Shown here one piece after another: positions 415 through 33,530 of a stretch of 64,000 nucleotides of DNA. Source of the DNA: a virus (lineage: Duplodnaviria; Heunggongvirae; Uroviricota; Caudoviricetes); the IMG/VR virus record IMGVR_UViG_3300037087_000772, positions 1 to 64,000 of that record, one strand, 5' to 3'. The notes under the pieces are model-generated. The model saw only the letters and a program-made list of their open reading frames with translations, searched no databases and had not been told where the DNA came from. Position 1 is the first letter of the stretch, and each line of letters begins with the position of its first letter. Made by a program: the position numbers and the translations under genes.

Positions 415-624
415 ATGACAGAAGAAGATAAAATAAACGATTCATTTCTTTTCACGAAGAAAAAGAAGTTTTTTATGGTATTTTATAAAGGGATTACATT
501 CACCGATGAAGAATCACTTTTAAATTTTGAAAGAAAAGAAAAGTTAGATAATATCTTGGATGATAAAGAATTGAAAGATGGATACCAATATAATTTTGAA
601 TTTCCAGATAATTTAGATTTATGA
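415..624 (+). CDS. small hypothetical protein ending in the conserved RKEKLDNILDD peptide; member of the small-paralogue family
   Basis: ORF track. The C-terminal peptide FERKEKLDNILDD is shared with ORFs at 1719..1937 and 29479..30985. A degenerate copy of the same ~60-nt segment lies at 258..330 (…YTRKEKLDNILR*). Confidence 0.35.
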   Translation: MTEEDKINDSFLFTKKKKFFMVFYKGITFTDEESLLNFERKEKLDNILDDKELKDGYQYNFEFPDNLDL

Positions 625-1709
625 TAGATGAATTATACATATCTAAATCGTTTTGTTGTATAGGTCGAAATACTAAGAATTGTTTGGGTTGTGCCTTTTG
701 TAGAGTATCCCAGAATAATACTGAATTCGAATATTCATGTCTACCATCCAAAATCAATAAAAATTTCATCAATCTACCCATTTCAATTAATTTATTTTAT
801 GGTGATCCATTGATTCAAAGAGACAAAACACTAAAGTATTTACATAAATTAGAAAAAGAAAATCATAAAGGTCCGGTTGTTATAATTACAAAGGGTGAAT
901 TATTAGATTTCGATTTACCGAATGATATCAATCTTGATTTACATTTGGCTTTTTCAACTTTTGGTATTGATCATGAGTTTGATAGATATTCAAACAAACG
1001 ATTATCATATAATTTACGAGTAGCAAATTTTAGAAAATATAAATATCATAAATCCATTGAATTTAGGCCAATTTGTTATGGAATAAACGATTCATTTGAA
1101 ACTATTAAAAATGTATTCAGTATTGCTAAAGATTTTAATATTGCAATTGGTTATTCTGGATTACAAGGTATTCCTGAGGTAGTAAAATATTGGGAAGAAA
1201 GCAATATAGATTTGAAACCATATCCCGGATTTAAATTTGGACATAAGAAATCAATTTCTAATGATGTTCAACAGATATTTGATGAGTTATCAGATTTATA
1301 CAATATTCCAATATTTAGAAAAACATCCTGTTTAATATCTTATACACACGATTTAGAAAGAGATTACAATGCTCATTATTATCGTCCCACTGAAATGAAT
1401 TGTGAAAAATGTGTGATGAAAGATAAATGTTTTGGTTTTAAAAATAATCAACCAACTGATATTAAACATTTGATTCCTTTTGATTTTGAAATTAAGATGA
1501 AAACTAATCATGAATGTATCTTAAAGAAAAAAGGTATATGTGAATTTCCATCGGATGATTGTTCAAGAATTTCAGGAAATATTTTAGTTATCAAGGAAAA
1601 ATTGACAACTGCGGATGTCAGAGTTATTAAATGGTTAACAGGATTTACAGTGGATGCTGATTTTTATGAAAGTTCATTATTGAATGATAAATGGAGAATG
1701 AAAAAATAA
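621..1709 (+). CDS. hypothetical protein with an N-terminal Cys cluster (CC-x7-C-x2-C-x2-C); possible Fe-S or Zn protein
   Basis: 362-aa ORF. Cys cluster CCIGRNTKNCLGCAFC near the N-terminus and a second cluster CEKCVMKDKC. Not a canonical CxxxCxxC radical-SAM motif. Confidence 0.45.
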   Translation: MIDELYISKSFCCIGRNTKNCLGCAFCRVSQNNTEFEYSCLPSKINKNFINLPISINLFYGDPLIQRDKTLKYLHKLEKENHKGPVVIITKGELLDFDLPNDINLDLHLAFSTFGIDHEFDRYSNKRLSYNLRVANFRKYKYHKSIEFRPICYGINDSFETIKNVFSIAKDFNIAIGYSGLQGIPEVVKYWEESNIDLKPYPGFKFGHKKSISNDVQQIFDELSDLYNIPIFRKTSCLISYTHDLERDYNAHYYRPTEMNCEKCVMKDKCFGFKNNQPTDIKHLIPFDFEIKMKTNHECILKKKGICEFPSDDCSRISGNILVIKEKLTTADVRVIKWLTGFTVDADFYESSLLNDKWRMKK

Positions 1710-5440: not shown

Positions 5441-6157
5441 ATGAAAACGGCTCTACTTATATGTGGCAAATGTCCAGATAATTACAAATATTTTTACGAT
5501 TCGATATACAAAACACTCATAGAACCATTTTGTCCGGATGTGTTTATATCAACTTGGATCGAGAAAGATATTTCCGTATCTGATATTTTGAATTTATATA
5601 AACCAATCAACAGTAAATTCGAGAACTTCACAGATATGAAAGAACAATTGAATGATTTTTCAAATTTTTTAAATGATAATCAAATAAAAGATATTCTTCC
5701 GAGTATGTTTCCCATGTTTTATAAATTACACAATGTCAATAGATTAAGATTGGAATATCAAAAAAGAAGTGGGATTAAGTATGATCTGGTTATCAGAACC
5801 AGATTTGATTTAAACTTTGGAGAAAAAATGGAGTGTAGTATTATCCAACCTTATGTGTTTAATTCTATTGATGAAACGGAAATAAAAGATTCTATTCAGA
5901 ATAATGCTTTATATCTTAGATTAGATCCTTTTGTTGGGAATAGGGTGATAAATGATTGGATTTGGGATCAATTCGCCTTCGGAAATGAAAACAACATGGA
6001 TATATATTGTAATACATTCTTGAACCTGAAAAATATCTTATTGTCGAAAAGGGAGAATGTGAATATTAATGAGAAGGTATTATTTTATAATTTAAAAGAT
6101 AATAATGTGTTATTAAAACAAACTCACACCTCTTACAGAATATCGAATTATGTTTAG
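5441..6157 (+). CDS. hypothetical protein
   Basis: ORF track gives 5420 (TTG start); the first ATG is at 5441 (MKTALLICGK…). A promoter-like AATATATAAAAATA lies just upstream. Confidence 0.4.
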   Translation: MKTALLICGKCPDNYKYFYDSIYKTLIEPFCPDVFISTWIEKDISVSDILNLYKPINSKFENFTDMKEQLNDFSNFLNDNQIKDILPSMFPMFYKLHNVNRLRLEYQKRSGIKYDLVIRTRFDLNFGEKMECSIIQPYVFNSIDETEIKDSIQNNALYLRLDPFVGNRVINDWIWDQFAFGNENNMDIYCNTFLNLKNILLSKRENVNINEKVLFYNLKDNNVLLKQTHTSYRISNYV

Positions 6158-7053
6158 TGGTATAGATTGTTCCTTAAAATATAATCAAAAACATTGACAT
6201 CTAATTTTTCCAATAATTGATTTTTCTTCTTTTCGGTTGGTGTTTTCCAATAGCTTTTCATCATCTTCCTTAATTCGGTTGATGATGCTTCGATAATACC
6301 CGTTTTTTCCTTATTTAAGAAGATATGAGGGGGTTTCAGATACCAATCAATGTTCCCCATCCTTTCGACCCCTTTTCGTGGTATAATGACAAATCTCATC
6401 ATTCTTTCAAGTTCCTGATAATTTACCCATGTATCGAATGTATTGGCGTTATCCTGACCGATAATCATAGAAAAATTATACATCTCTGTAAGATTGGTTT
6501 CTTCCTTTAACCTTTTAACAAAATAGAAGGTTTCCCCGAAAAATTTATTTCTGATTTCATAATCGAACACTTTGATTCGTTTGTCAACCTCAGCGGCTAT
6601 TCGAGCCATCTCCAAACGATGTTCGGCCGGTGCCATACTTTTATTATACATATGATGAAAACATGGTAAAATCCATACTTCATCGAATTCATTACTGGTA
6701 TCCAAAACGAATTTAGCTGTTTGAATATGACCATCGTGGATCATATCAAAAGCTCCACCGTAAAGAGCCACTTTTATTTTCCTACCAAGTGTCTTATATT
6801 GTTCCCTTCTACGGTTTATTTTTATGAGAGTATCTTTAACTAAATCTTCAAAATTCCATCCTGATTCCTCAGCCAACATGATTAAAGAAGCCATCAAGTC
6901 ACCTGTTTCTTCCTTGATGTTCTTTATATCATTCCATTTCATCAGTTCAAAGAATTCATTTGTAATATCTTTTAAACGCTCAGAAAATGGTGTGTAACCG
7001 AAATTTTCTTTGAATGTATCAGCAGTTTGTTTTTGTAGTTTCTTTGTGTCCAT
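6154..7053 (-). CDS. bifunctional MazG-like NTP pyrophosphohydrolase / nicotinate(nicotinamide) mononucleotide adenylyltransferase (NadD/NMNAT) fusion
   Basis: N-terminal MazG/HisE-like motif EETGDLMASLIMLAEESGWNFEDL. C-terminal NadD motifs ALYGGAFDMIHDGH ((H/T)xGH nucleotidyltransferase motif) and IIEASSTELR (ISST-R motif). Confidence 0.7.
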   Translation of the reverse strand: MDTKKLQKQTADTFKENFGYTPFSERLKDITNEFFELMKWNDIKNIKEETGDLMASLIMLAEESGWNFEDLVKDTLIKINRRREQYKTLGRKIKVALYGGAFDMIHDGHIQTAKFVLDTSNEFDEVWILPCFHHMYNKSMAPAEHRLEMARIAAEVDKRIKVFDYEIRNKFFGETFYFVKRLKEETNLTEMYNFSMIIGQDNANTFDTWVNYQELERMMRFVIIPRKGVERMGNIDWYLKPPHIFLNKEKTGIIEASSTELRKMMKSYWKTPTEKKKNQLLEKLDVNVFDYILRNNLYH

Positions 7054-24000: not shown

Positions 24001-24768
24001 ATGGAGCCTCATATAATTTCAGTAAGTCGTAGAGAAGATATTCCCGCATTCCGTGGCGATTGGTTCATGGAGAAAATAAAAAAGGGGTATGTTAATATGG
24101 TAAATCCTTGGTCAACATATACCATATCTTTCGAAAAAGTGAAATTGGCTGTATTCTGGTCGAAGAATCCAAGACCTTTTATGAAATATCTGGATTCTTT
24201 ACCATTCAAATATTATTTCCAATTTACATTAAATGGATATCCAGAATATGAATTAGAAGTCCCACCGATATTAGAAAGAATTGAAACTTTCAAGGAATTA
24301 TCAGATAAAATAGGTAGGGAGTGTGTAATATGGAGATTTGACCCGATTATTATTTCTGATAAAATAACAGAAGAAAAACTTTTAAGAAGAATTGAAAAAA
24401 TTGGGAATGAAATACATAATTATACAGAAAAACTTGTATTTAGTTATATTGATCCCTATAAAAAATTGGGTAATAAATTCAAAGAAGTTCCTGATGATGT
24501 TAAAATTAGAATTTCTAAACAATTAATAGAATTCAATAAAGATTGGGGATTGAAATTAGCCACCTGTGCCGAATCAATTAATTTGGATGGTATAGAACAT
24601 AATAAATGTGTAGATCCTGAATTAATTGAACGAATATGTGGAAAACAAAGATGGATAACGAGTACAAAGGATAAAAATCAAAGAACTGAATGTGGATGTA
24701 TCCAAAGTGGAGATATAGGAACATTTAAAACCTGTAAGCATCATTGTACATACTGTTACGCTTGTTAA
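24001..24768 (+). CDS. DUF1848-like protein (C-terminal Cys cluster CxC…C..HHCTYCYAC)
   Basis: 255 aa; ISVSRREDIPAF…FWSKNP…CGCIQSGDIGTFKTCKHHCTYCYAC matches my recollection of the DUF1848 family. Confidence 0.45.
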   Translation: MEPHIISVSRREDIPAFRGDWFMEKIKKGYVNMVNPWSTYTISFEKVKLAVFWSKNPRPFMKYLDSLPFKYYFQFTLNGYPEYELEVPPILERIETFKELSDKIGRECVIWRFDPIIISDKITEEKLLRRIEKIGNEIHNYTEKLVFSYIDPYKKLGNKFKEVPDDVKIRISKQLIEFNKDWGLKLATCAESINLDGIEHNKCVDPELIERICGKQRWITSTKDKNQRTECGCIQSGDIGTFKTCKHHCTYCYAC

Positions 24769-25586: not shown

Positions 25587-26117
25587 ATGAAAATTTATGA
25601 TGATGATGAAATAAGAAGAATGGCTGGTCATCCAGACTGTGTTGATATATATGAAGTCAATGGGTTTCTAAGAGGATTTAGAAAAGCCCAAGAATTACTT
25701 TTATTTAAAAATGAATTTTTGGATAATAGTAGAAATCAATATCTGGATAATAGTAGAAATCAATATTCAAAAAATGGACTTCCATTCATGTACCCACATT
25801 TAGAAGAAGATAAAATTTTTAATGATAATTTTGATGAAATTGAAAAATATGCTAAGGAATGTCAGATAAATCAATATGGAGATTTTGGTAAACCGAAAAG
25901 TAATAATTATCCAGAATTCAGATTTCAATATAAAGGAATCATTCATCCCACACATTATGATTTCACATTCAAAAATGCTTTATTTCGTTATTGTTGGGTA
26001 GAACCATTTGAAGAATATAGGATGGGTAATCAAGTAGATATTTTTTATAGAACTGGTAGTTATTATGTAATTTTTGATTATGAAAAAGAAGGTTATGATG
26101 ATTATAAGTTAAAATGA
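25587..26117 (+). CDS. hypothetical protein containing an in-frame 24-bp tandem duplication (LDNSRNQY ×2)
   Basis: 176-aa ORF; ctggataatagtagaaatcaatat repeated at about 25728..25775. Confidence 0.4.
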   Translation: MKIYDDDEIRRMAGHPDCVDIYEVNGFLRGFRKAQELLLFKNEFLDNSRNQYLDNSRNQYSKNGLPFMYPHLEEDKIFNDNFDEIEKYAKECQINQYGDFGKPKSNNYPEFRFQYKGIIHPTHYDFTFKNALFRYCWVEPFEEYRMGNQVDIFYRTGSYYVIFDYEKEGYDDYKLK

Positions 26118-26675: not shown

Positions 26676-27149
26676 ATGACAGAAAATGATATTTTAGCAC
26701 TAAGTTGGAAACAACCATTTGCTAGTCTGATGTTATGTGGGAAAATTGAAACCAGAGTATGGAAAACTAAATACAGGGGTGAAGTATTGATATGTGCTTC
26801 TAAGAAGTCATATTCATTAAAGGAATTAAATGATATTTGTGGACAGTATCAATTGTATAGAATATTTGACACTTTACATTGTGATCTTGGTTGTGTAGAT
26901 GATCTTTGTGGATTGGCTATAGCCATTGGAAGATTAGTTGATTGTAGACCAATGCAAAAAACAGATGAAGATAATTGTTTCGCTTTATACAATCCTGATT
27001 TGTGGTGCCATGTTTATGAGGATGTTAGAGAAATAAAACCATTTCCATTCAGGGGAAAACAAGGTTGGTCTAAATTGGATAAGACAACTTTTGACAAAAT
27101 TGAGTATATAAATTATGAAAAGGATCTAAGAGAATGGCTAAAGAAATAA
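26676..27149 (+). CDS. ASCH domain protein
   Basis: 157 aa; LSWKQPFASLMLCGKIETRVWKTKYRGEVLICAS matches the ASCH N-terminal signature. Confidence 0.5.
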   Translation: MTENDILALSWKQPFASLMLCGKIETRVWKTKYRGEVLICASKKSYSLKELNDICGQYQLYRIFDTLHCDLGCVDDLCGLAIAIGRLVDCRPMQKTDEDNCFALYNPDLWCHVYEDVREIKPFPFRGKQGWSKLDKTTFDKIEYINYEKDLREWLKK

Positions 27150-27513: not shown

Positions 27514-27987
27514 ATGACATACAAAATTATATTTTTGGATTTTGATGGTGTGTTAATTCCAGCCAGTGCCAAGGGATTCAATATGAGAAATATTGACAAT
27601 CTCAATGAACTTATTCGTAAAACGGGGGCTAAAATAGTTGTAACCTCAGATTGGAAAAGAAAACACGATGTTACAAAAATTTTATATGATAATGGTGTTA
27701 AAGGTGAAATACTTGGAATCACTCCGAATTTTTCGATTAAAGAAGATGAAACCATTAAAGTTCCCAAAGGATTAGAAATTAAAGAATGGTTAAATAAGTT
27801 TAATTCATTCGATGGTGAAAATGAACTAAAATATGTTACGAATTATGTTATCTTAGATGACCATCATATTGATATGTTAGTTGAACAAATAGACAATATG
27901 GTGGAAATAGATCAGACTAAAGGATTCGATGGTAAAGCTCTGAAAGACGCTATATCCATATTAATAAGAGATGAAATAATTATTTAA
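27514..27987 (+). CDS. HAD-superfamily hydrolase/phosphatase-like protein
   Basis: 157 aa; IIFLDFDGVL is HAD motif I (DxDG[TV]L); VVTSDW. Confidence 0.45.
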   Translation: MTYKIIFLDFDGVLIPASAKGFNMRNIDNLNELIRKTGAKIVVTSDWKRKHDVTKILYDNGVKGEILGITPNFSIKEDETIKVPKGLEIKEWLNKFNSFDGENELKYVTNYVILDDHHIDMLVEQIDNMVEIDQTKGFDGKALKDAISILIRDEIII

Positions 27988-28005: not shown

Positions 28006-28890
28006 ATGGAATGGGATGCAATAAAATGGGCACAAACCTATAAAACTTCAAATCTTAACAGAAGAAAAGAACTTTTGATTGATGTTTGGGAAAACACGAT
28101 TAAAATCGTTAAGAATGGAAAATACTTCTCGGATGGAGAAGTTATCATTGACAACTCGAAAGTGTGCCAGAACTCTTTATTTACTGAAAATGGCCCAATT
28201 TATGACCCAACGGGGATAAATGACTTTAAAACTGAAATATTGGTCATGGATGCTGATTGTTTGGATGTAGCAAGAACGATGGAAAATCCGATAGTTTTAA
28301 ATATGGCCAGTTATAAGAATCCCGGTGGTGGTGTAATAAATGGTTCATCGGCACAGGAAGAAAATTTATTCAGAAGAACCAATTTATTTAAATCTCTTTA
28401 TCAATATGTTGATTATGCTCATCAGTATGGAATAGAACAAAATTCTAAATACAAATATCCATTGGGTGATTATGGTGCAATCTATTCAAAAGATATAACC
28501 GTTTTTCGTGGTTCTGAAAAAAATGGATATTATTTACTCTCCCATCCATTCAAATGTGCTTTTATATCTGTACCTGCAATAAAAAGACCAGAATTGAAGA
28601 ATAGAAGAATGAATGAAAATGACTTCTCCAAAACCAAACAAAAAATAAGAAGGATTTTTCAATTCGCTCATGAGAATGGACATAGAGATTTAGTTCTTTC
28701 CGCTTTTGGTTGTGGTGCTTATGGAAATCCACCCGAACAGATAGCTTCAATCTTTAAAGAATTATTAGATACTGAATATAAAGGGGTTTTTCATAAGATA
28801 GTATTCGCTATCTATGATGATCATAACTCATATAAAGAACACAATCCAGATGGAAATTTAAAACCATTCAAGAAAATATTTAATATATAA
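28006..28890 (+). CDS. bacterial-type poly(ADP-ribose) glycohydrolase-like macrodomain protein (DUF2263/PARG)
   Basis: 294 aa; LNMASYKNPGGGVINGSSAQEENLFRR carries the PARG signature GGG-X7-QEE; C-terminal LVLSAFGCGAYGNPPE. Confidence 0.7.
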   Translation: MEWDAIKWAQTYKTSNLNRRKELLIDVWENTIKIVKNGKYFSDGEVIIDNSKVCQNSLFTENGPIYDPTGINDFKTEILVMDADCLDVARTMENPIVLNMASYKNPGGGVINGSSAQEENLFRRTNLFKSLYQYVDYAHQYGIEQNSKYKYPLGDYGAIYSKDITVFRGSEKNGYYLLSHPFKCAFISVPAIKRPELKNRRMNENDFSKTKQKIRRIFQFAHENGHRDLVLSAFGCGAYGNPPEQIASIFKELLDTEYKGVFHKIVFAIYDDHNSYKEHNPDGNLKPFKKIFNI

Positions 28891-28897
28891 TCACATT

Positions 28898-29482
28898 ATG
28901 ACAAATTTATACATTGATGAATTGGATTTCGAAGATGATGAAAATATCAAAATTATTGATTTTCCAATAACAAGACAAGCCTATTCATATACTTGTGGTT
29001 GTGATATAGTAGAAAGAACAATGGAATTTTATGGTGAAAATTTTCGTGAATCTGATTTAGTTGAAATTTTGAAAACTAACGAAGAAGAAGGAACACTTGT
29101 AAAAAACATAGTGAAATTTTTTCATTATCATGATCTAAAGACTGAATTACAACAAGATATGACAATTGATGATCTGATTAAATATGTGGATAAGAACATT
29201 CCAGTAATTGTTTTGATACAAGCTTGGGGAACTGATTTTAAATTCAAAAGAAAATATAAAGAAACTTGGGGAGATGGACATTTTGTGGCTGTAATTGGAT
29301 ACACAGATAAACTTTTATTAATTAGTGATCCGTCTTTATTTAATGTCGGATATATACCAAAATCTGAATTTATGAACAGATGGCATGACATTGATGATGG
29401 ACTTGAAACATATCAACTCGGATTGGCTGTTTTTGGAAGAAAAGCAATATTTGATAAAGATAAGTTAGAAAGAGTCAGATGA
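28898..29482 (+). CDS. papain-like cysteine peptidase, C39-like domain
   Basis: 194 aa; ITRQAYSYTCGCDIVERTM supplies the Gln and Cys nucleophile; WGDGHFVAVIGYTDKLLLISDP supplies the His, as in Peptidase_C39_2. Confidence 0.45.
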   Translation: MTNLYIDELDFEDDENIKIIDFPITRQAYSYTCGCDIVERTMEFYGENFRESDLVEILKTNEEEGTLVKNIVKFFHYHDLKTELQQDMTIDDLIKYVDKNIPVIVLIQAWGTDFKFKRKYKETWGDGHFVAVIGYTDKLLLISDPSLFNVGYIPKSEFMNRWHDIDDGLETYQLGLAVFGRKAIFDKDKLERVR

Positions 29483-29914: not shown

Positions 29915-30242
29915 AAATGAATTTAATTGGGATAATTTCTGGAAAGAATATCATGATTTTGAATTGGATAAAAGAAAATCCGAATCTATTGAGACAGGTT
30001 TAAGTTTTTTAGATAATTTATTTAAGAAAGGAATATCCAAGAATAAAATAACTATTATAACTGGAAAATCCGAATATAATTATAATTATTTATCAGAATT
30101 CGTGGATTTATATAATTCAAGACAAAATAATACATTTAAAGTGTTTTTTGGAAATGACACAGATATATTAGAAGCCAGATTAATAAATTACATAAGATCT
30201 GAAAAACTCAATGATATTTTGAATGATGGATTTCCTGGATAA
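29907..30242 (+). CDS. small-paralogue family member (FLDNLF…YIRSEKLNDILND)
   Basis: 111-aa ORF. Confidence 0.4.
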   Translation: MNENEFNWDNFWKEYHDFELDKRKSESIETGLSFLDNLFKKGISKNKITIITGKSEYNYNYLSEFVDLYNSRQNNTFKVFFGNDTDILEARLINYIRSEKLNDILNDGFPG

Positions 30243-30594
30243 ATTTTTGATCGGAAAATCTGAATCTATGATTCAGGATGTTAATAATATTAGAAATGAT
30301 ATTATTGAGATTGATGATGAAACCTTAGAATTTTTAAATGAAGAGAATCAAAGATATTCTCGTGAAATGGATTTTGACTATATCCCACCACCTTATAAAC
30401 CACTATTCGGAGAAACGATTTTAGGAATTAGACTATGGCACGAACATTCTTGTGAATTATTTACAACTGAGTTTAATCTGGAAAATATTAATGTTAGTGG
30501 ATTAGCAACTCGTGTTTTTCGTGGAATTGATTTAGTTGCAAAACTACAAAATCATATTAGATACAAAAAATTAGAAAAAATATTAAATGATTGA
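30223..30594 (+). CDS. small-paralogue family member (FLDKFLIGKS…IRYKKLEKILND)
   Basis: 123 aa; clear paralogue of 30587..30985. Confidence 0.45.
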   Translation: MMDFLDKFLIGKSESMIQDVNNIRNDIIEIDDETLEFLNEENQRYSREMDFDYIPPPYKPLFGETILGIRLWHEHSCELFTTEFNLENINVSGLATRVFRGIDLVAKLQNHIRYKKLEKILND

Positions 30595-30985
30595 TATGAA
30601 TTTTTTAGATAAATTTTTGATTGGGAAATCGGTTGAACCAGATATTAAAAATCATATTTGGTGTAATTTATTTGAAACCAATGAAAAAGATATTGATGGA
30701 ATTTTGGAATTTTTATCTCAAGAAAATAAAAAATATTGTGAAGAAATGAATTGGGATTCATGGAAATTTAATTATAGAAAACCAAAATTCGGGGAAACAA
30801 TAATCGGAATTGGAACAAAAAGTGCAGCTGGTACTGAAATGTATAATTCTTGTTATATAATTACAACTGACTTTATGAATAGACCAGATGGATTCGTATC
30901 TCATTGTTATTCGGGTCATGAAATATCAGAAAAAATACAAAATTTCATTAGATCTCAAAAATTAAAATCGTTGTTAAATGATTGA
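30587..30985 (+). CDS. small-paralogue family member (FLDKFLIGKS…IRSQKLKSLLND)
   Basis: 132 aa; the stop overlaps the MTase start (ATGATTGA). Confidence 0.45.
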   Translation: MIDMNFLDKFLIGKSVEPDIKNHIWCNLFETNEKDIDGILEFLSQENKKYCEEMNWDSWKFNYRKPKFGETIIGIGTKSAAGTEMYNSCYIITTDFMNRPDGFVSHCYSGHEISEKIQNFIRSQKLKSLLND

Positions 30986-31712
30986 TATAAATAAAATATA
31001 TTTCGATAATTGTTTACATCTAATGCCTGATATTGATACTCATATTGTTGATATGATTCTTGCTGATTTACCATACGGAGTCACAAGAAACAAGAAAGAT
31101 ATTATGATCCCATTTGAATTACTCTGGAAGAACTACAATCGAATTATAAAACCGAATGGATGTATTGCTTTATTCGCTCAGGGAATGTTCGCTCACAAAC
31201 TTGCTTTATCTAATGAGAAAATGTATCGTTATGATTTGATATGGAAAAAAGGAGAAAGGGTCACTGGATTTTTAAATGCAAAAAAACAAATACTTAGAAA
31301 CCATGAGCAAATTTTGATTTTCTATAAAAAACAACCAACTTACCATCCACAATTTACAGAGGGGACACCTCAGCATTCAAAAGGTAACGCTTTTTCTTTC
31401 AAAGAAGGAAAAAATCAAAATTATGGTTATTTTGATTCGAAAATTCCAGATATAAGAAAAGGAACTACACAAAAATATCCGAAAAGTGTTTTAAACTTCG
31501 AAAAACCTTGGCCACCTGTACATAGAACCCAAAAACCAGTAAAATTGTGTGAATGGTTAATATTGACCTTTACGAATCCCGGAGAATTAGTACTGGATAA
31601 CACTTGTGGTATTGGAACAACCTGTATAGCAGCTAAGAATACAGGAAGAAATTTCATAGGAATTGAAAATGATGAAGAATTTTATAATATGGATTATTAT
31701 CATTTGTTATGA
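30978..31712 (+). CDS. DNA methyltransferase, N6-adenine/N4-cytosine family (beta class: motif IV before motif I)
   Basis: 244 aa; ILADLPYG is a motif IV variant of DPPY; C-terminal LVLDNTCGIGTTCIAAKNTGRNFIGIENDEEF is the motif I FxGxG region typical of the N6_N4_Mtase family. Confidence 0.7.
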   Translation: MIDINKIYFDNCLHLMPDIDTHIVDMILADLPYGVTRNKKDIMIPFELLWKNYNRIIKPNGCIALFAQGMFAHKLALSNEKMYRYDLIWKKGERVTGFLNAKKQILRNHEQILIFYKKQPTYHPQFTEGTPQHSKGNAFSFKEGKNQNYGYFDSKIPDIRKGTTQKYPKSVLNFEKPWPPVHRTQKPVKLCEWLILTFTNPGELVLDNTCGIGTTCIAAKNTGRNFIGIENDEEFYNMDYYHLL

Positions 31713-32216
31713 ATAAATATTAGAATCATCTATATCCCAACTTCCATCATTTTTAATATTCTTAATATAATTCGGGTAAAACATAATAAAATCTTTTCTA
31801 ATTACATCAATATCAGTATTGGACTTTTCAATAATTATACCATCATAATTTAACAATATCTTATTCTTTATATTAATTATCTCACTCTTCCATTCCTTAA
31901 CATCATTCATATAATCAAACCAAGTTTCATAAATCTTTGGATTTTCTATTTTCAAATAAACTTTTAAAATTTTCGGATTTAATTTATTGTGTGTAAAAAC
32001 TTTAGCAACCTTTAATGATTCAGTAAACCAACACCCTTTACTACAATCAAATATTTTATCAATAGTTGATTTATAATATTCACCTGTTCCGTGATAAGCA
32101 ATTAATGGATGATTATTTTCATCTACGACTTTACTTTCATCAAACCATTTATAAAAATTAGGATTTAAATTTTTATATTCTTCAAACATTTTTAGATATT
32201 TCATAGAATTTACCAT
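31707..32216 (-). CDS. hypothetical protein
   Basis: 169-aa ORF. Confidence 0.4.
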   Translation of the reverse strand: MVNSMKYLKMFEEYKNLNPNFYKWFDESKVVDENNHPLIAYHGTGEYYKSTIDKIFDCSKGCWFTESLKVAKVFTHNKLNPKILKVYLKIENPKIYETWFDYMNDVKEWKSEIINIKNKILLNYDGIIIEKSNTDIDVIRKDFIMFYPNYIKNIKNDGSWDIDDSNIYS

Positions 32217-33530
32217 CTTTTAGTATTAGATATCTTAAAATCTTTTATTCTATTTAAATTTTCTTCGGTTGGCATAGGATCTACATTGAATTTCTTCTTA
32301 AATTCACGCCTCGATATTCCCCAACTTTCATATCCTTTCGAATCTAAATTATTAAATACGATTCCACCACTTGTATTACTTCTCCAAACATACTGAGATT
32401 CTATTCTTATTCCATCTAATTCATAGTTGGCCTTTTTATCATCATGATCGAAGAATTGAACCGATAATGGACTATTTGCTCCGATCCAATAATCGCCATC
32501 CACAATTTCTATATCATCTATGGTAAATTTGTAATTTACTGGAATTTCTATGATATATTCTTTTTCTTTTTTACCAGAAACATAATCTACTTCTCCAAAA
32601 AATTCTTCTGTCTTTGGTGAAGTGACTATTTTTACCTTAGTCGGATCAACTCTCAAAATAATACCCTCTTTATTTGCGAAATAAGCAGCTATATCCCTTG
32701 ATTCGGTAAAAGATAAGAATTTTCCATCCGATATTTTTGACATTCCTTTCTCAACGATAAATTGAATCAAATTATCAATGAAAGTTTTGACCCAAGTAGT
32801 ATGTTTATCATCAATCCCTTTAGCTTGTTCTTGTGATACTTTTCTTAATTGTTCAATTTCTTTACCTTTTAATCCTTGGAATACCCTTATTCCCCTATAT
32901 AAATTCTTTGGAAGTTTCGGTTTATCTTTTTTTATTTTATAATGGTGATAGAAGGAATATAACCAAACATATTGAACTATGTTATTAACTTTCTTAATTG
33001 ATAAATTATTTGTTATCGTATAGGCTGGAATACCATCAAAATCAACCCATCTTTTCACGACATCCTTGTGGAGATCAAAATCATATTTAGTACTTTTAGG
33101 GTTTGTATTTTTAATTTTTTCAAGATCCGTAAATCTATTTAAAAATCTAAGTCCATTTGTAGAATTCACATCACCAAACACATTTCTACTTTCTAATCCA
33201 CCAGAGGCAACAATTAACATAGCTGTTTGTTGTCTGAGATCTTTAAAAATGCTAGCTCCCTCCTTTGGAATTTTTTGTCCTATCTGAGCGACAGTATGTA
33301 ATAAAGATTTACTAACTGAATCCTTCCAATTAAGAATCATATTCTCTCTGATTTGAGTATATTTATTAAAGTCCATTCCCATCAAATTAACGAGTTCTTC
33401 TTCAGTATTAAAACCAGTTTTTATGGAATTTTTTAACTTTTCCTTAAATTCTGACCAATCAGTAAATTTTATCGAATCATTGAATTGACCATATCTTTCA
33501 TTCAAAAATTCTGAGAATGAATACAACATA
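32210..33530 (-). CDS. hypothetical protein; candidate R-S-E class mono-ADP-ribosyltransferase (Alt-like?)
   Basis: The ORF track extends to 33919, but a TTAATATATA promoter motif at 33547..33556 lies 16 nt upstream of the internal ATG at 33530 (MLYSFSEF…). Ordered motifs NLYRGIRV (Arg), FLSFTESRDIA (S-T-S-like) and KKEKEYIIEIP (ExE followed by hydrophobics) have the spacing seen in ADP-ribosyltransferases. Confidence 0.4.

Follow-up and report, generated by a model that had tools for sequence, protein, structure and literature searches.

A predicted microbial-type PARG in an uncultured megaphage and its possible role in counter-defence

ADP-ribosylation and the signals derived from ADP-ribose (ADPR) are major currencies of bacterial immunity, as in DarTG, CmdTAC, Thoeris and NAD depletion. 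To our knowledge, the phage erasers described so far are NADARs, sponges and RyDEP. Here we report on a gene at 28006..28890 of a stretch of 64,000 nucleotides (positions 1 to 64,000 of the IMG/VR record IMGVR_UViG_3300037087_000772, from an uncultured phage of the Caudoviricetes; this whole stretch is called the window below). By its sequence and predicted structure, the gene encodes a complete member of the microbial-type PARG family with its catalytic equipment intact, and we weigh what such an enzyme may do for a phage.

The closest described proteins are the cellular PARGs of T. curvata (3SIG), D. radiodurans (DRB0099; 5ZDA-G) and S. coelicolor (SCO0909). The window PARG, which is phage-encoded, shares with them the Pfam/TIGRFAM family, the motifs GGG-X6-8-QEE and GCGx[FY]GN and a fold with N-terminal helices. 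The identity to the solved bacterial PARGs was 25-27% over the structural alignment. Unlike T. curvata PARG, whose key residues are E114, E115 and F227 (review PMC8120803), the window protein belongs to a subfamily rich in Bacteroidota and Spirochaetota, with an invariant DDHNSxKEHNPxGN..PF at the place of the ribose cap. The bacterial enzymes SCO0909 and DRB0099 were the only tested hydrolases that reversed the 2'-OH ADP-ribosylation of RNA by RhsP2; they also process ADP-ribose (ADPr) on terminal phosphates and shield E. coli from the RhsP2 toxin, and orphan bacterial PARGs were proposed by the authors to be immunity enzymes (PMC11833690). Canonical eukaryote-type PARG, including the baculovirus PARG, is a remote relative among the macrodomains, and its catalytic loop follows the same logic. 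These proteins are larger, have no ribose cap and match the window model with a template modelling (TM) score of only about 0.4-0.5.

Among viruses, PARGs of the same family and fold as the window PARG, with an equal bias toward large genomes, are found in phage G (gp114), in Lak megaphages, in phages of 595-642 kb and in giant viruses; for example, the PARG of Pandoravirus neocaledonia matched the window model with TM 0.90. The window PARG is 30-45% identical to the viral PARGs already in databases, and its neighbours differ from theirs. The phage G homologue (our locus L175; JN638751.1, 66154..70829, annotated 'gp114') has 35% identity and is followed 3.4 kb downstream by gp122, an 'Appr-1-p processing' macrodomain of MacroD type, so that the two genes make up a duo of PARG and MacroD hydrolases as described for PARP-bearing bacteria. 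Surveys of jumbo phages and of NAD-ADPr biology treat Macro domains generally and never name PARG.

Two phage enzymes of other folds serve as comparisons for function. The phage NADAR AdfN, an orphan antitoxin that neutralises DarTG1 (PMC11825919), gives a precedent for the strategy: as is proposed for the window PARG, it is a stand-alone ADP-ribosylhydrolase of bacterial derivation that undoes the product of a host ADP-ribosyltransferase (ART). It differs in its unrelated fold, in the N-glycosidic guanine-ADPr bond that it cleaves and in having an experimentally proven role, while that of the window PARG is inferred. RyDEP (PMC13232231) acts by hydrolysis on an ADPR derivative, at an O-glycosidic bond that joins two riboses, as could be proposed for PARG, and is linked to NAD+ resynthesis genes; unlike PARG, it has a RyR-domain fold, a His/Asp mechanism and proven activity on 2'/3'cADPR.

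The window gene is a single open reading frame (ORF) with an ATG start and a TAA stop, as seen in both the ORF list and the raw sequence, and its start codon agrees with the N-termini of homologues in an alignment of relatives. A sequence-only reading of this DNA had noted a PARG/DUF2263 catalytic signature here and had suggested a search with hidden Markov models (HMMs). In this search, both family models scored above their curated thresholds: Pfam PF10021 PARG_cat_microb matched the 294-amino acid (aa) protein with E 1.5e-26 and 94 bits (gathering score 23.5), and NCBIfam TIGR02452 with E 2.7e-43 and 148.4 bits (cut-off 50), the latter match spanning residues 27-275 of the protein and positions 2-257 of the 266 in the model. 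Among PDB sequences, phmmer found T. curvata PARG 3SIG (E 2e-24) and D. radiodurans PARG 5ZD* (E 3e-21) and no other genuine matches beyond the PARGs of these two species. When the search was made with a profile built from 26 relatives, the respective E-values were 4e-35 and 2e-33, and the alignment with T. curvata PARG became longer, reaching chain residues 4-260. The signature and the family match are far above chance. The category of the gene was already known: databases annotate such genes in large viruses automatically, and the protein already carried the JGI name 'uncharacterized protein (TIGR02452 family)'.

The catalytic loop PGGGVINGSSAQEENL, residues 106-121 (codons ccc ggt ggt ggt gta ata aat ggt tca tcg gca cag gaa gaa aat tta), reads G107-G108-G109, X7, Q117-E118-E119, i.e. 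GGG-X7-QEE. In both the phmmer and the profile alignments, E118/E119 stand opposite E114/E115 of T. curvata PARG, and in the comparison with 3SIJ, the E115A mutant of the T. curvata enzyme, its alanine pairs with E119. We observed that G107-G109, Q117, E118 and E119 are invariant in the 26 relatives and that GGG-X7-QEE is kept in all 37 viral lineages with a full-length ORF, down to about 30% identity. In the diphosphate-binding loop, Y239 occupies the position of F227, the aromatic residue of T. curvata PARG that stacks on the adenine, and across viral and bacterial homologues this position holds F or Y. Such invariance of catalytic and ligand residues in relatives, and their retention in the 37 viral lineages, argues for selection on activity. 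The protein is very probably an active hydrolase of the PARG family.

An AlphaFold2 model computed from the alignment had a mean predicted local distance difference test (pLDDT) score of 90.9 and a predicted TM (pTM) score of 0.89. In this model, helices at residues 5-37 precede the macrodomain core. The top Foldseek matches in the PDB were the T. curvata PARG structures 3SIJ, 3SIH and 3SIG (E about 1e-18; TM 0.70-0.71 normalised by the query and 0.75-0.78 by the target), followed by all the D. radiodurans PARG entries 5ZD* (E about 1e-14), while macrodomains of the MacroD type reached a TM of only about 0.37. The predicted fold is therefore a macrodomain with an N-terminal helical extension, as in microbial-type PARG. 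Thus the signature proposed from the letters alone was borne out by the sequence, by the PF10021 and TIGR02452 profiles and by the predicted fold; either the absence of a macrodomain or a displacement of the Glu-Glu pair from the PARG active site would have spoken against it, and we found a predicted macrodomain whose best matches are T. curvata PARG structures and a pair, E118/E119, aligned with the catalytic E114/E115.

Besides these shared elements, the protein has a subfamily-specific motif near its C-terminus, in which D272, N274, N280, P281, G283, N284, P287 and F288 are invariant in the 26 relatives. The last 20 residues are nearly invariant within the subfamily. The motif adjoins the last core strand, which is the place of the 'ribose cap' in T. 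curvata PARG, an element that limits the enzyme to exo-glycohydrolase action. Residues 273-288 have no alignment to 3SIG or 5ZD*, and the profile alignment with 3SIG ends at position 287 of 310. A gapless extension of the D. radiodurans alignment would bring K277/E278 near the T267 cap position.

The window (about 29% G+C) carries a major capsid protein, a prohead protease, a portal protein and a family-B DNA polymerase. Its capsid protein and polymerase are 68% and 67% identical, respectively, to those of LR756501/LR756503, an uncultured phage of 735,411 bp, and 40-50% identical to those of phages of 634-642 kb. At least 19 metagenomic contigs, drawn from several samples and up to 597,284 bp long among those listed, encode the identical PARG protein, and the longest contig in the cluster record of the protein has 736,551 bp. 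The gene belongs, therefore, to a megaphage of about 600-740 kb related to LR756501. A megablast search with the 20 kb around PARG against 50,697 phage records gave no match, and for this reason the genomic context was taken from protein searches. In LR756501, no PARG match was found at E 1e-5; in the 40 kb around its polymerase a HAD homologue was present, and PARG, ART, C39 peptidase and methylase were not found. Since this closest sequenced relative has no match and the immediate neighbours of PARG vary within the clade, we consider the gene accessory, in agreement with the accessory region assumed in the sequence-only reading.

The PARG family is large: at E<=1e-3, matches were found to 9,392 sequences that each represent a cluster of 50% identity. 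The subfamily of the window PARG gave at least 578 matches at species level and is common among Bacteroidota, Spirochaetota and other groups. The best bacterial matches were 45-49% identical, and the one inspected at 49% sits in a clearly bacterial context. Viral carriers are rare: a PARG homologue was present in 20 of the 50,697 GenBank phage records. Two of these belong to Bacillus phage G, whose 497,513-bp genome was deposited twice, and 15 to Lak megaphages; the others are from two uncultured phages of 595-642 kb and from a single 23-kb fragment. In IMG/VR, 139 relatives were confirmed, of which the 80 most similar (79 loci) were kept, picked by subfamily-specific patterns from the megaphage protein. 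Out of these 79 loci, 48 were on contigs of 100 kb or more, 30 on those reaching 200 kb or more and 5 on giant-virus genomes of 1.8-2.5 Mb. In BFVD, the PARG fold was found in Pandoravirus (TM 0.90), Marseillevirus, Tupanvirus, Orpheovirus and others, labelled 'Microbial-type PARG'. The PARGs of viruses occur above all in huge phages and giant viruses; this is an observation and not a statistic, because the loci were selected by similarity to a megaphage protein.

When the ORFs of 80 bacterial loci and of 82 viral regions, the latter from 40 lineages, were clustered all against all, no universal neighbour of PARG emerged. At the bacterial loci, the PARG of this subfamily stands alone with no conserved neighbour, as expected for an orphan immunity gene. 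In six closely related Segatella/Prevotella loci (L143, 4900..5379 (-), and five more), a 159-aa protein (MIELYHGS...GQGFYLT) is encoded about 0.6 kb upstream of the bacterial PARG; it appears DUF3990-like by eye, and its pairing with PARG may be coincidental. Four of the ten multidomain close relatives that were scanned (P0162, P0166, P0185 and P0190, with PARGs 44-50% identical to that of the window) have an ADP-ribosylglycohydrolase domain of the ARH/DraG type fused N-terminally to PARG. These fusions, together with the MacroD gene of phage G, tie the subfamily to ADP-ribose erasure. Other multidomain relatives carry LRR_5, RCC1 or Sel1 repeats, and in P0165 (1441 aa) the query PARG matched in five separate stretches.

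NAD-synthesis genes were found near PARG in 11 of the 40 viral lineages (NadD in 8, NadE in 4, one lineage with both). NadD (TIGR00482, 123 bits vs a cut-off of 112) was at a median distance of 1.9 kb, while NadE (TIGR00552, 152 bits) was 0.7 kb off in two of its lineages. In these other huge-phage lineages the NadD or NadE gene lies 0.6-6 kb from PARG, often with genes for a YqeY-like protein and a calcineurin-like phosphoesterase. When the window was searched for genes of the ARH type, of the MacroD type and for NadE, none was found, and the only gene of NAD synthesis was NadD-like: a fusion of a MazG nucleotide pyrophosphohydrolase with a NadD-like nicotinate/nicotinamide mononucleotide adenylyltransferase at 6154..7053 (-), which scored 99 bits with TIGR00482 (below the cut-off of 112). 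It is a phage NAD-metabolism gene situated 21 kb from PARG.

We propose that the window PARG is an orphan eraser that serves counter-defence by removing O-linked ADP-ribose from nucleic acids or from PAR-like chains (PAR, poly(ADP-ribose)); by analogy with the systems described above, we give this reading an even chance of being right. The macrodomain cleft would bind a terminal ADP-ribose via the G235-N241 diphosphate loop and Y239. The substrates open to this chemistry would be the ribose-ribose bonds of PAR as well as ADP-ribose carried by the 2'-OH of RNA or by the terminal phosphates of either RNA or DNA. During infection, the enzyme would strip the ADP-ribose put on nucleic acids or PAR-like chains by ARTs of the host or of a competitor, and its removal would keep phage gene expression going. 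An RNA-directed role would suit the ASCH gene and the 'RNA-repair-type' HAD gene just upstream (the title of PF18143 HAD_SAK_2 is 'HAD domain in Swiss Army Knife RNA repair proteins'), but synteny is all that links these genes to PARG.

Several observations weigh against the orphan eraser. Searches of PHROGs and PADLOC with the PARG protein gave zero matches. The reading of the neighbourhood as an 'RNA-repair island' rests on weak context: the adjacency of HAD to PARG and of ASCH to PARG is limited to one syntenic clade, and LR756501 retains the HAD gene without PARG. The C-terminal motif is unlike that of the solved PARGs, so the substrate preference could differ as well. Finally, the recurrent NAD-synthesis neighbours in other huge-phage clades point to a metabolic or signal-degrading role instead.

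The phage has two ART genes of its own at 2.8-4.6 kb from PARG, and PARG might erase the marks that they make. The sequence-only reading had pointed to a candidate ART at 32210..33530 and to such editing of the phage's own modifications. The candidate is real and has an R-S-ExE fold, with Y211-R212-G213, S273-F274 and E322-x-E324 invariant down to 36% identity; with 40 homologues among 5.8 billion proteins and no match in Pfam, PHROG or PADLOC, this orphan family is new and arguably more novel than the PARG in the window. The neighbouring ART-PolyVal gene, overlooked in that reading, has a start that overlaps the stop of the 439-aa ART gene; its protein matches part of a 1664-position PHROG of polyvalent proteins, and no homologue was found at the same position in the related phages L011 and L013. 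RhsP2 was rejected as a model for these enzymes, since its R-Y-E triad fits neither ART. That PARG removes the products of the two ARTs (31707..33529), be it for protection of phage components, for timing of host takeover or as half of a toxin-immunity-like pair, seems unlikely to us. The 439-aa ART and PARG do occur together in all four lineages of the window clade, but inside a clade this is ordinary synteny, and within 10 kb of the more distant copies of this ART in megaphages (34-50% identical) there is no PARG. Membership of ART-PolyVal in the PARP-related H-Y-D clade (PMC5512222) makes O-linked or oligomeric products conceivable; however, its homologue was found at no other viral or bacterial PARG locus examined. 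As for the ExE-type ARTs, it is established that their classical product is N-linked Arg-ADPr, a linkage that PARGs leave uncut (review PMC8120803), and an ARH-type partner for such an enzyme is absent from the window. Both ARTs are also encoded on the strand opposite to PARG, in a converging block with seven genes in between. Comparative genomics, by the distant ART loci and by the other PARG loci, thus couples neither ART to PARG and lends no support to the idea of self-editing.

Action on soluble ADPR-derived immune signals, either by linearising 2'cADPR/3'cADPR or by freeing ADPR for NAD+ resynthesis under an NAD-depleting defence, looks doubtful. The O-glycosidic bond between the riboses of 2'cADPR/3'cADPR would be of the type that PARG cuts in PAR, and RyDEP, a phage glycosidase of unrelated fold, cuts this bond in 2'/3'cADPR and feeds NARP1 (PMC13232231). 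Two separate huge-phage PARG clades have NadD or NadE beside PARG, and the window itself encodes the MazG-NadD-like fusion; however, this gene is distant and below its model cut-off, and the NadD and NadE associations may each stem from one syntenic ancestor. An exo-type cleft may be unable to accommodate a cyclic substrate, and no connection between PARG and glycocyclic ADPR (gcADPR) was found in the literature searched. We know of no PARG for which hydrolysis of 2'/3'cADPR has been described. An equally doubtful extension would treat the PARGs of huge phages and giant viruses at large as macrodomain-fold ribose-ribose and ribose-2'-O glycosidases directed against ADPR-based immunity; they would strip 2'-O-ADP-ribosyl marks made on RNA by host ARTs or linearise 2'cADPR/3'cADPR, and the ADP-ribose would pass to NadD/NadE. 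DarTG is a real anti-phage system against which phages carry ADP-ribosylhydrolases (PMC11825919), and the sequence-only reading had named DarT-type DNA ADP-ribosylation as a substrate, yet the reversal of such marks (on thymidine N3 or guanine N2) by PARG is very improbable. The DarT linkages are N-glycosidic, while PARGs cut an O-glycosidic bond. In an S. coelicolor panel guanosine-ADPr was removed by NADARs only, the macrodomain hydrolases being inactive (PMC11833690). Thymidine-ADPr is removed by DarG and TARG1-type macrodomains, and in a fly set of hydrolases, which according to the paper included Parg, only Targ1 and Targ3 were active on it (PMC12879935). Published assays assign the base-linked marks to DarG/TARG1 or NADAR enzymes, and the 2'-OH and phosphate linkages to bacterial PARGs (PMC11833690, PMC12879935). 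Just as hard to believe is that the protein binds or soaks up ADP-ribose without catalysis, or that the gene is a neutral passenger lately acquired from a bacterium. The best bacterial homologue (49%) is no more distant than other viral homologues, and the nearest relative lacks the gene; on the other hand, every catalytic residue has been retained across the 37 viral lineages, the protein is 100% identical on the contigs from several samples, and related phages with the surrounding gene order intact have PARGs 61-76% identical to it.

The coordinates of PARG, of its motifs and of the neighbouring genes are given in Table 1, together with the survey loci that have NadD or NadE.

Table 1. PARG, its sequence elements and associated genes in the window, and survey loci with NAD-synthesis genes near PARG
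Feature	Coordinates or loci	Strand	Evidence and remarks
Microbial-type PARG gene (PF10021 / TIGR02452), 294 aa	28006..28890	+	predicted N-terminal helical extension and macrodomain core
Catalytic loop P106-GGG-VINGSSA-QEE-NL121	28321..28368	+	T. curvata alignment; conservation in relatives
Diphosphate-binding loop G235-C-G-A-Y239-G-N241	28708..28728	+	aligns with GCGVFGN of T. curvata PARG
Subfamily-specific C-terminal motif DDHNSYKEHNPDGNLKPF, residues 271-288	28816..28869	+	invariant positions in relatives
ASCH-domain protein	26676..27149	+	syntenic within clade; ASCH domain of human ASC-1, E 7.9e-6
HAD_SAK_2 phosphatase (PF18143)	27514..27987	+	Pfam; stop 18 nt upstream of PARG
C39-like peptidase	28898..29482	+	Pfam; 8 nt downstream of PARG
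ART-PolyVal (H-Y-D clade), stand-alone, 169 aa	31707..32216	-	Pfam E 3e-15; 2.8 kb from PARG
439-aa protein with divergent R-S-ExE mono-ART domain (about residues 205-345)	32210..33529	-	fold, conserved motifs
PARG loci with NadD	L018-L031, L043, L047, L081		
PARG loci with NadE	L067-L070, L081-L085, L092		

The PARG gene lies in a tightly packed block of plus-strand genes at about 17.0-31.7 kb. A scan of the 16-35 kb region for sigma-70 promoters and terminators gave 114 promoters vs 129 expected from shuffled controls and 2 terminators vs 5.5; since these numbers were not above the controls, the operon structure can be surmised only from the tight same-strand packing. The neighbour assignments of the sequence-only reading agreed with our searches, HAD (PF18143) and the C39-like peptidase by Pfam and ASCH by its ASC-1 match, the ASCH protein having zero matches in Pfam. 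The HAD gene is found 0-0.7 kb upstream of PARG in all four lineages of the window's phage clade. HAD-PARG coupling as a general rule was rejected, since an HMM of the HAD protein found the pair only in this clade and at one other locus. The C39-like peptidase is specific to the window phage, being absent in the relatives L011, L013 and L016. In L011, L013 and L016/17, the PARG is 61-68% identical to that of the window and the small genes beside it differ, while the order DUF1848 ... HAD ... PARG ... methylase, 430-445-aa protein, polymerase is kept.

The DUF1848 protein of the window (24001..24768 (+)) matched the PADLOC model 'RTasDUF1848' with E 1.4e-40; this family is an accessory of defence-associated reverse transcriptases, yet the gene here is phage-encoded. 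It is conserved in the relatives and in LR756501, where it is more than 200 kb from the polymerase. Two overlapping adjacent genes downstream of PARG, 30223..30594 and 30587..30985 (+), encode paralogous small proteins with a common N-terminal ...FLDKFLIGKS... and a similar C-terminus, and the pair looks like a tandem duplication. The protein at 25587..26117 (+) has a short internal direct repeat (LDNSRNQY twice). Farther away, we observed a radical-SAM protein at 10800..11603 (-) (E 1.2e-7), a protein with a SprT-like metalloprotease domain at 11944..12735 (+) (E 4e-8) and an ORF at 621..1709 (+) with a weak, below-threshold radical-SAM-like match.

The interest of the locus is in a counter-defence candidate, well defined in its sequence, in one of the largest phage genomes, in the size bias of viral PARGs and in the linkage to NadD/NadE elsewhere. 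If the PARGs of very large viruses did prove to be glycosidases acting against ADPR-based immunity, PARG would be a counter-defence trait that recurs among viruses with very large genomes and, after RyDEP, a second class of enzymes that destroy TIR/Thoeris signals. Even if the window protein is an ordinary PARG, it documents that megaphages borrow orphan immunity enzymes from bacteria.

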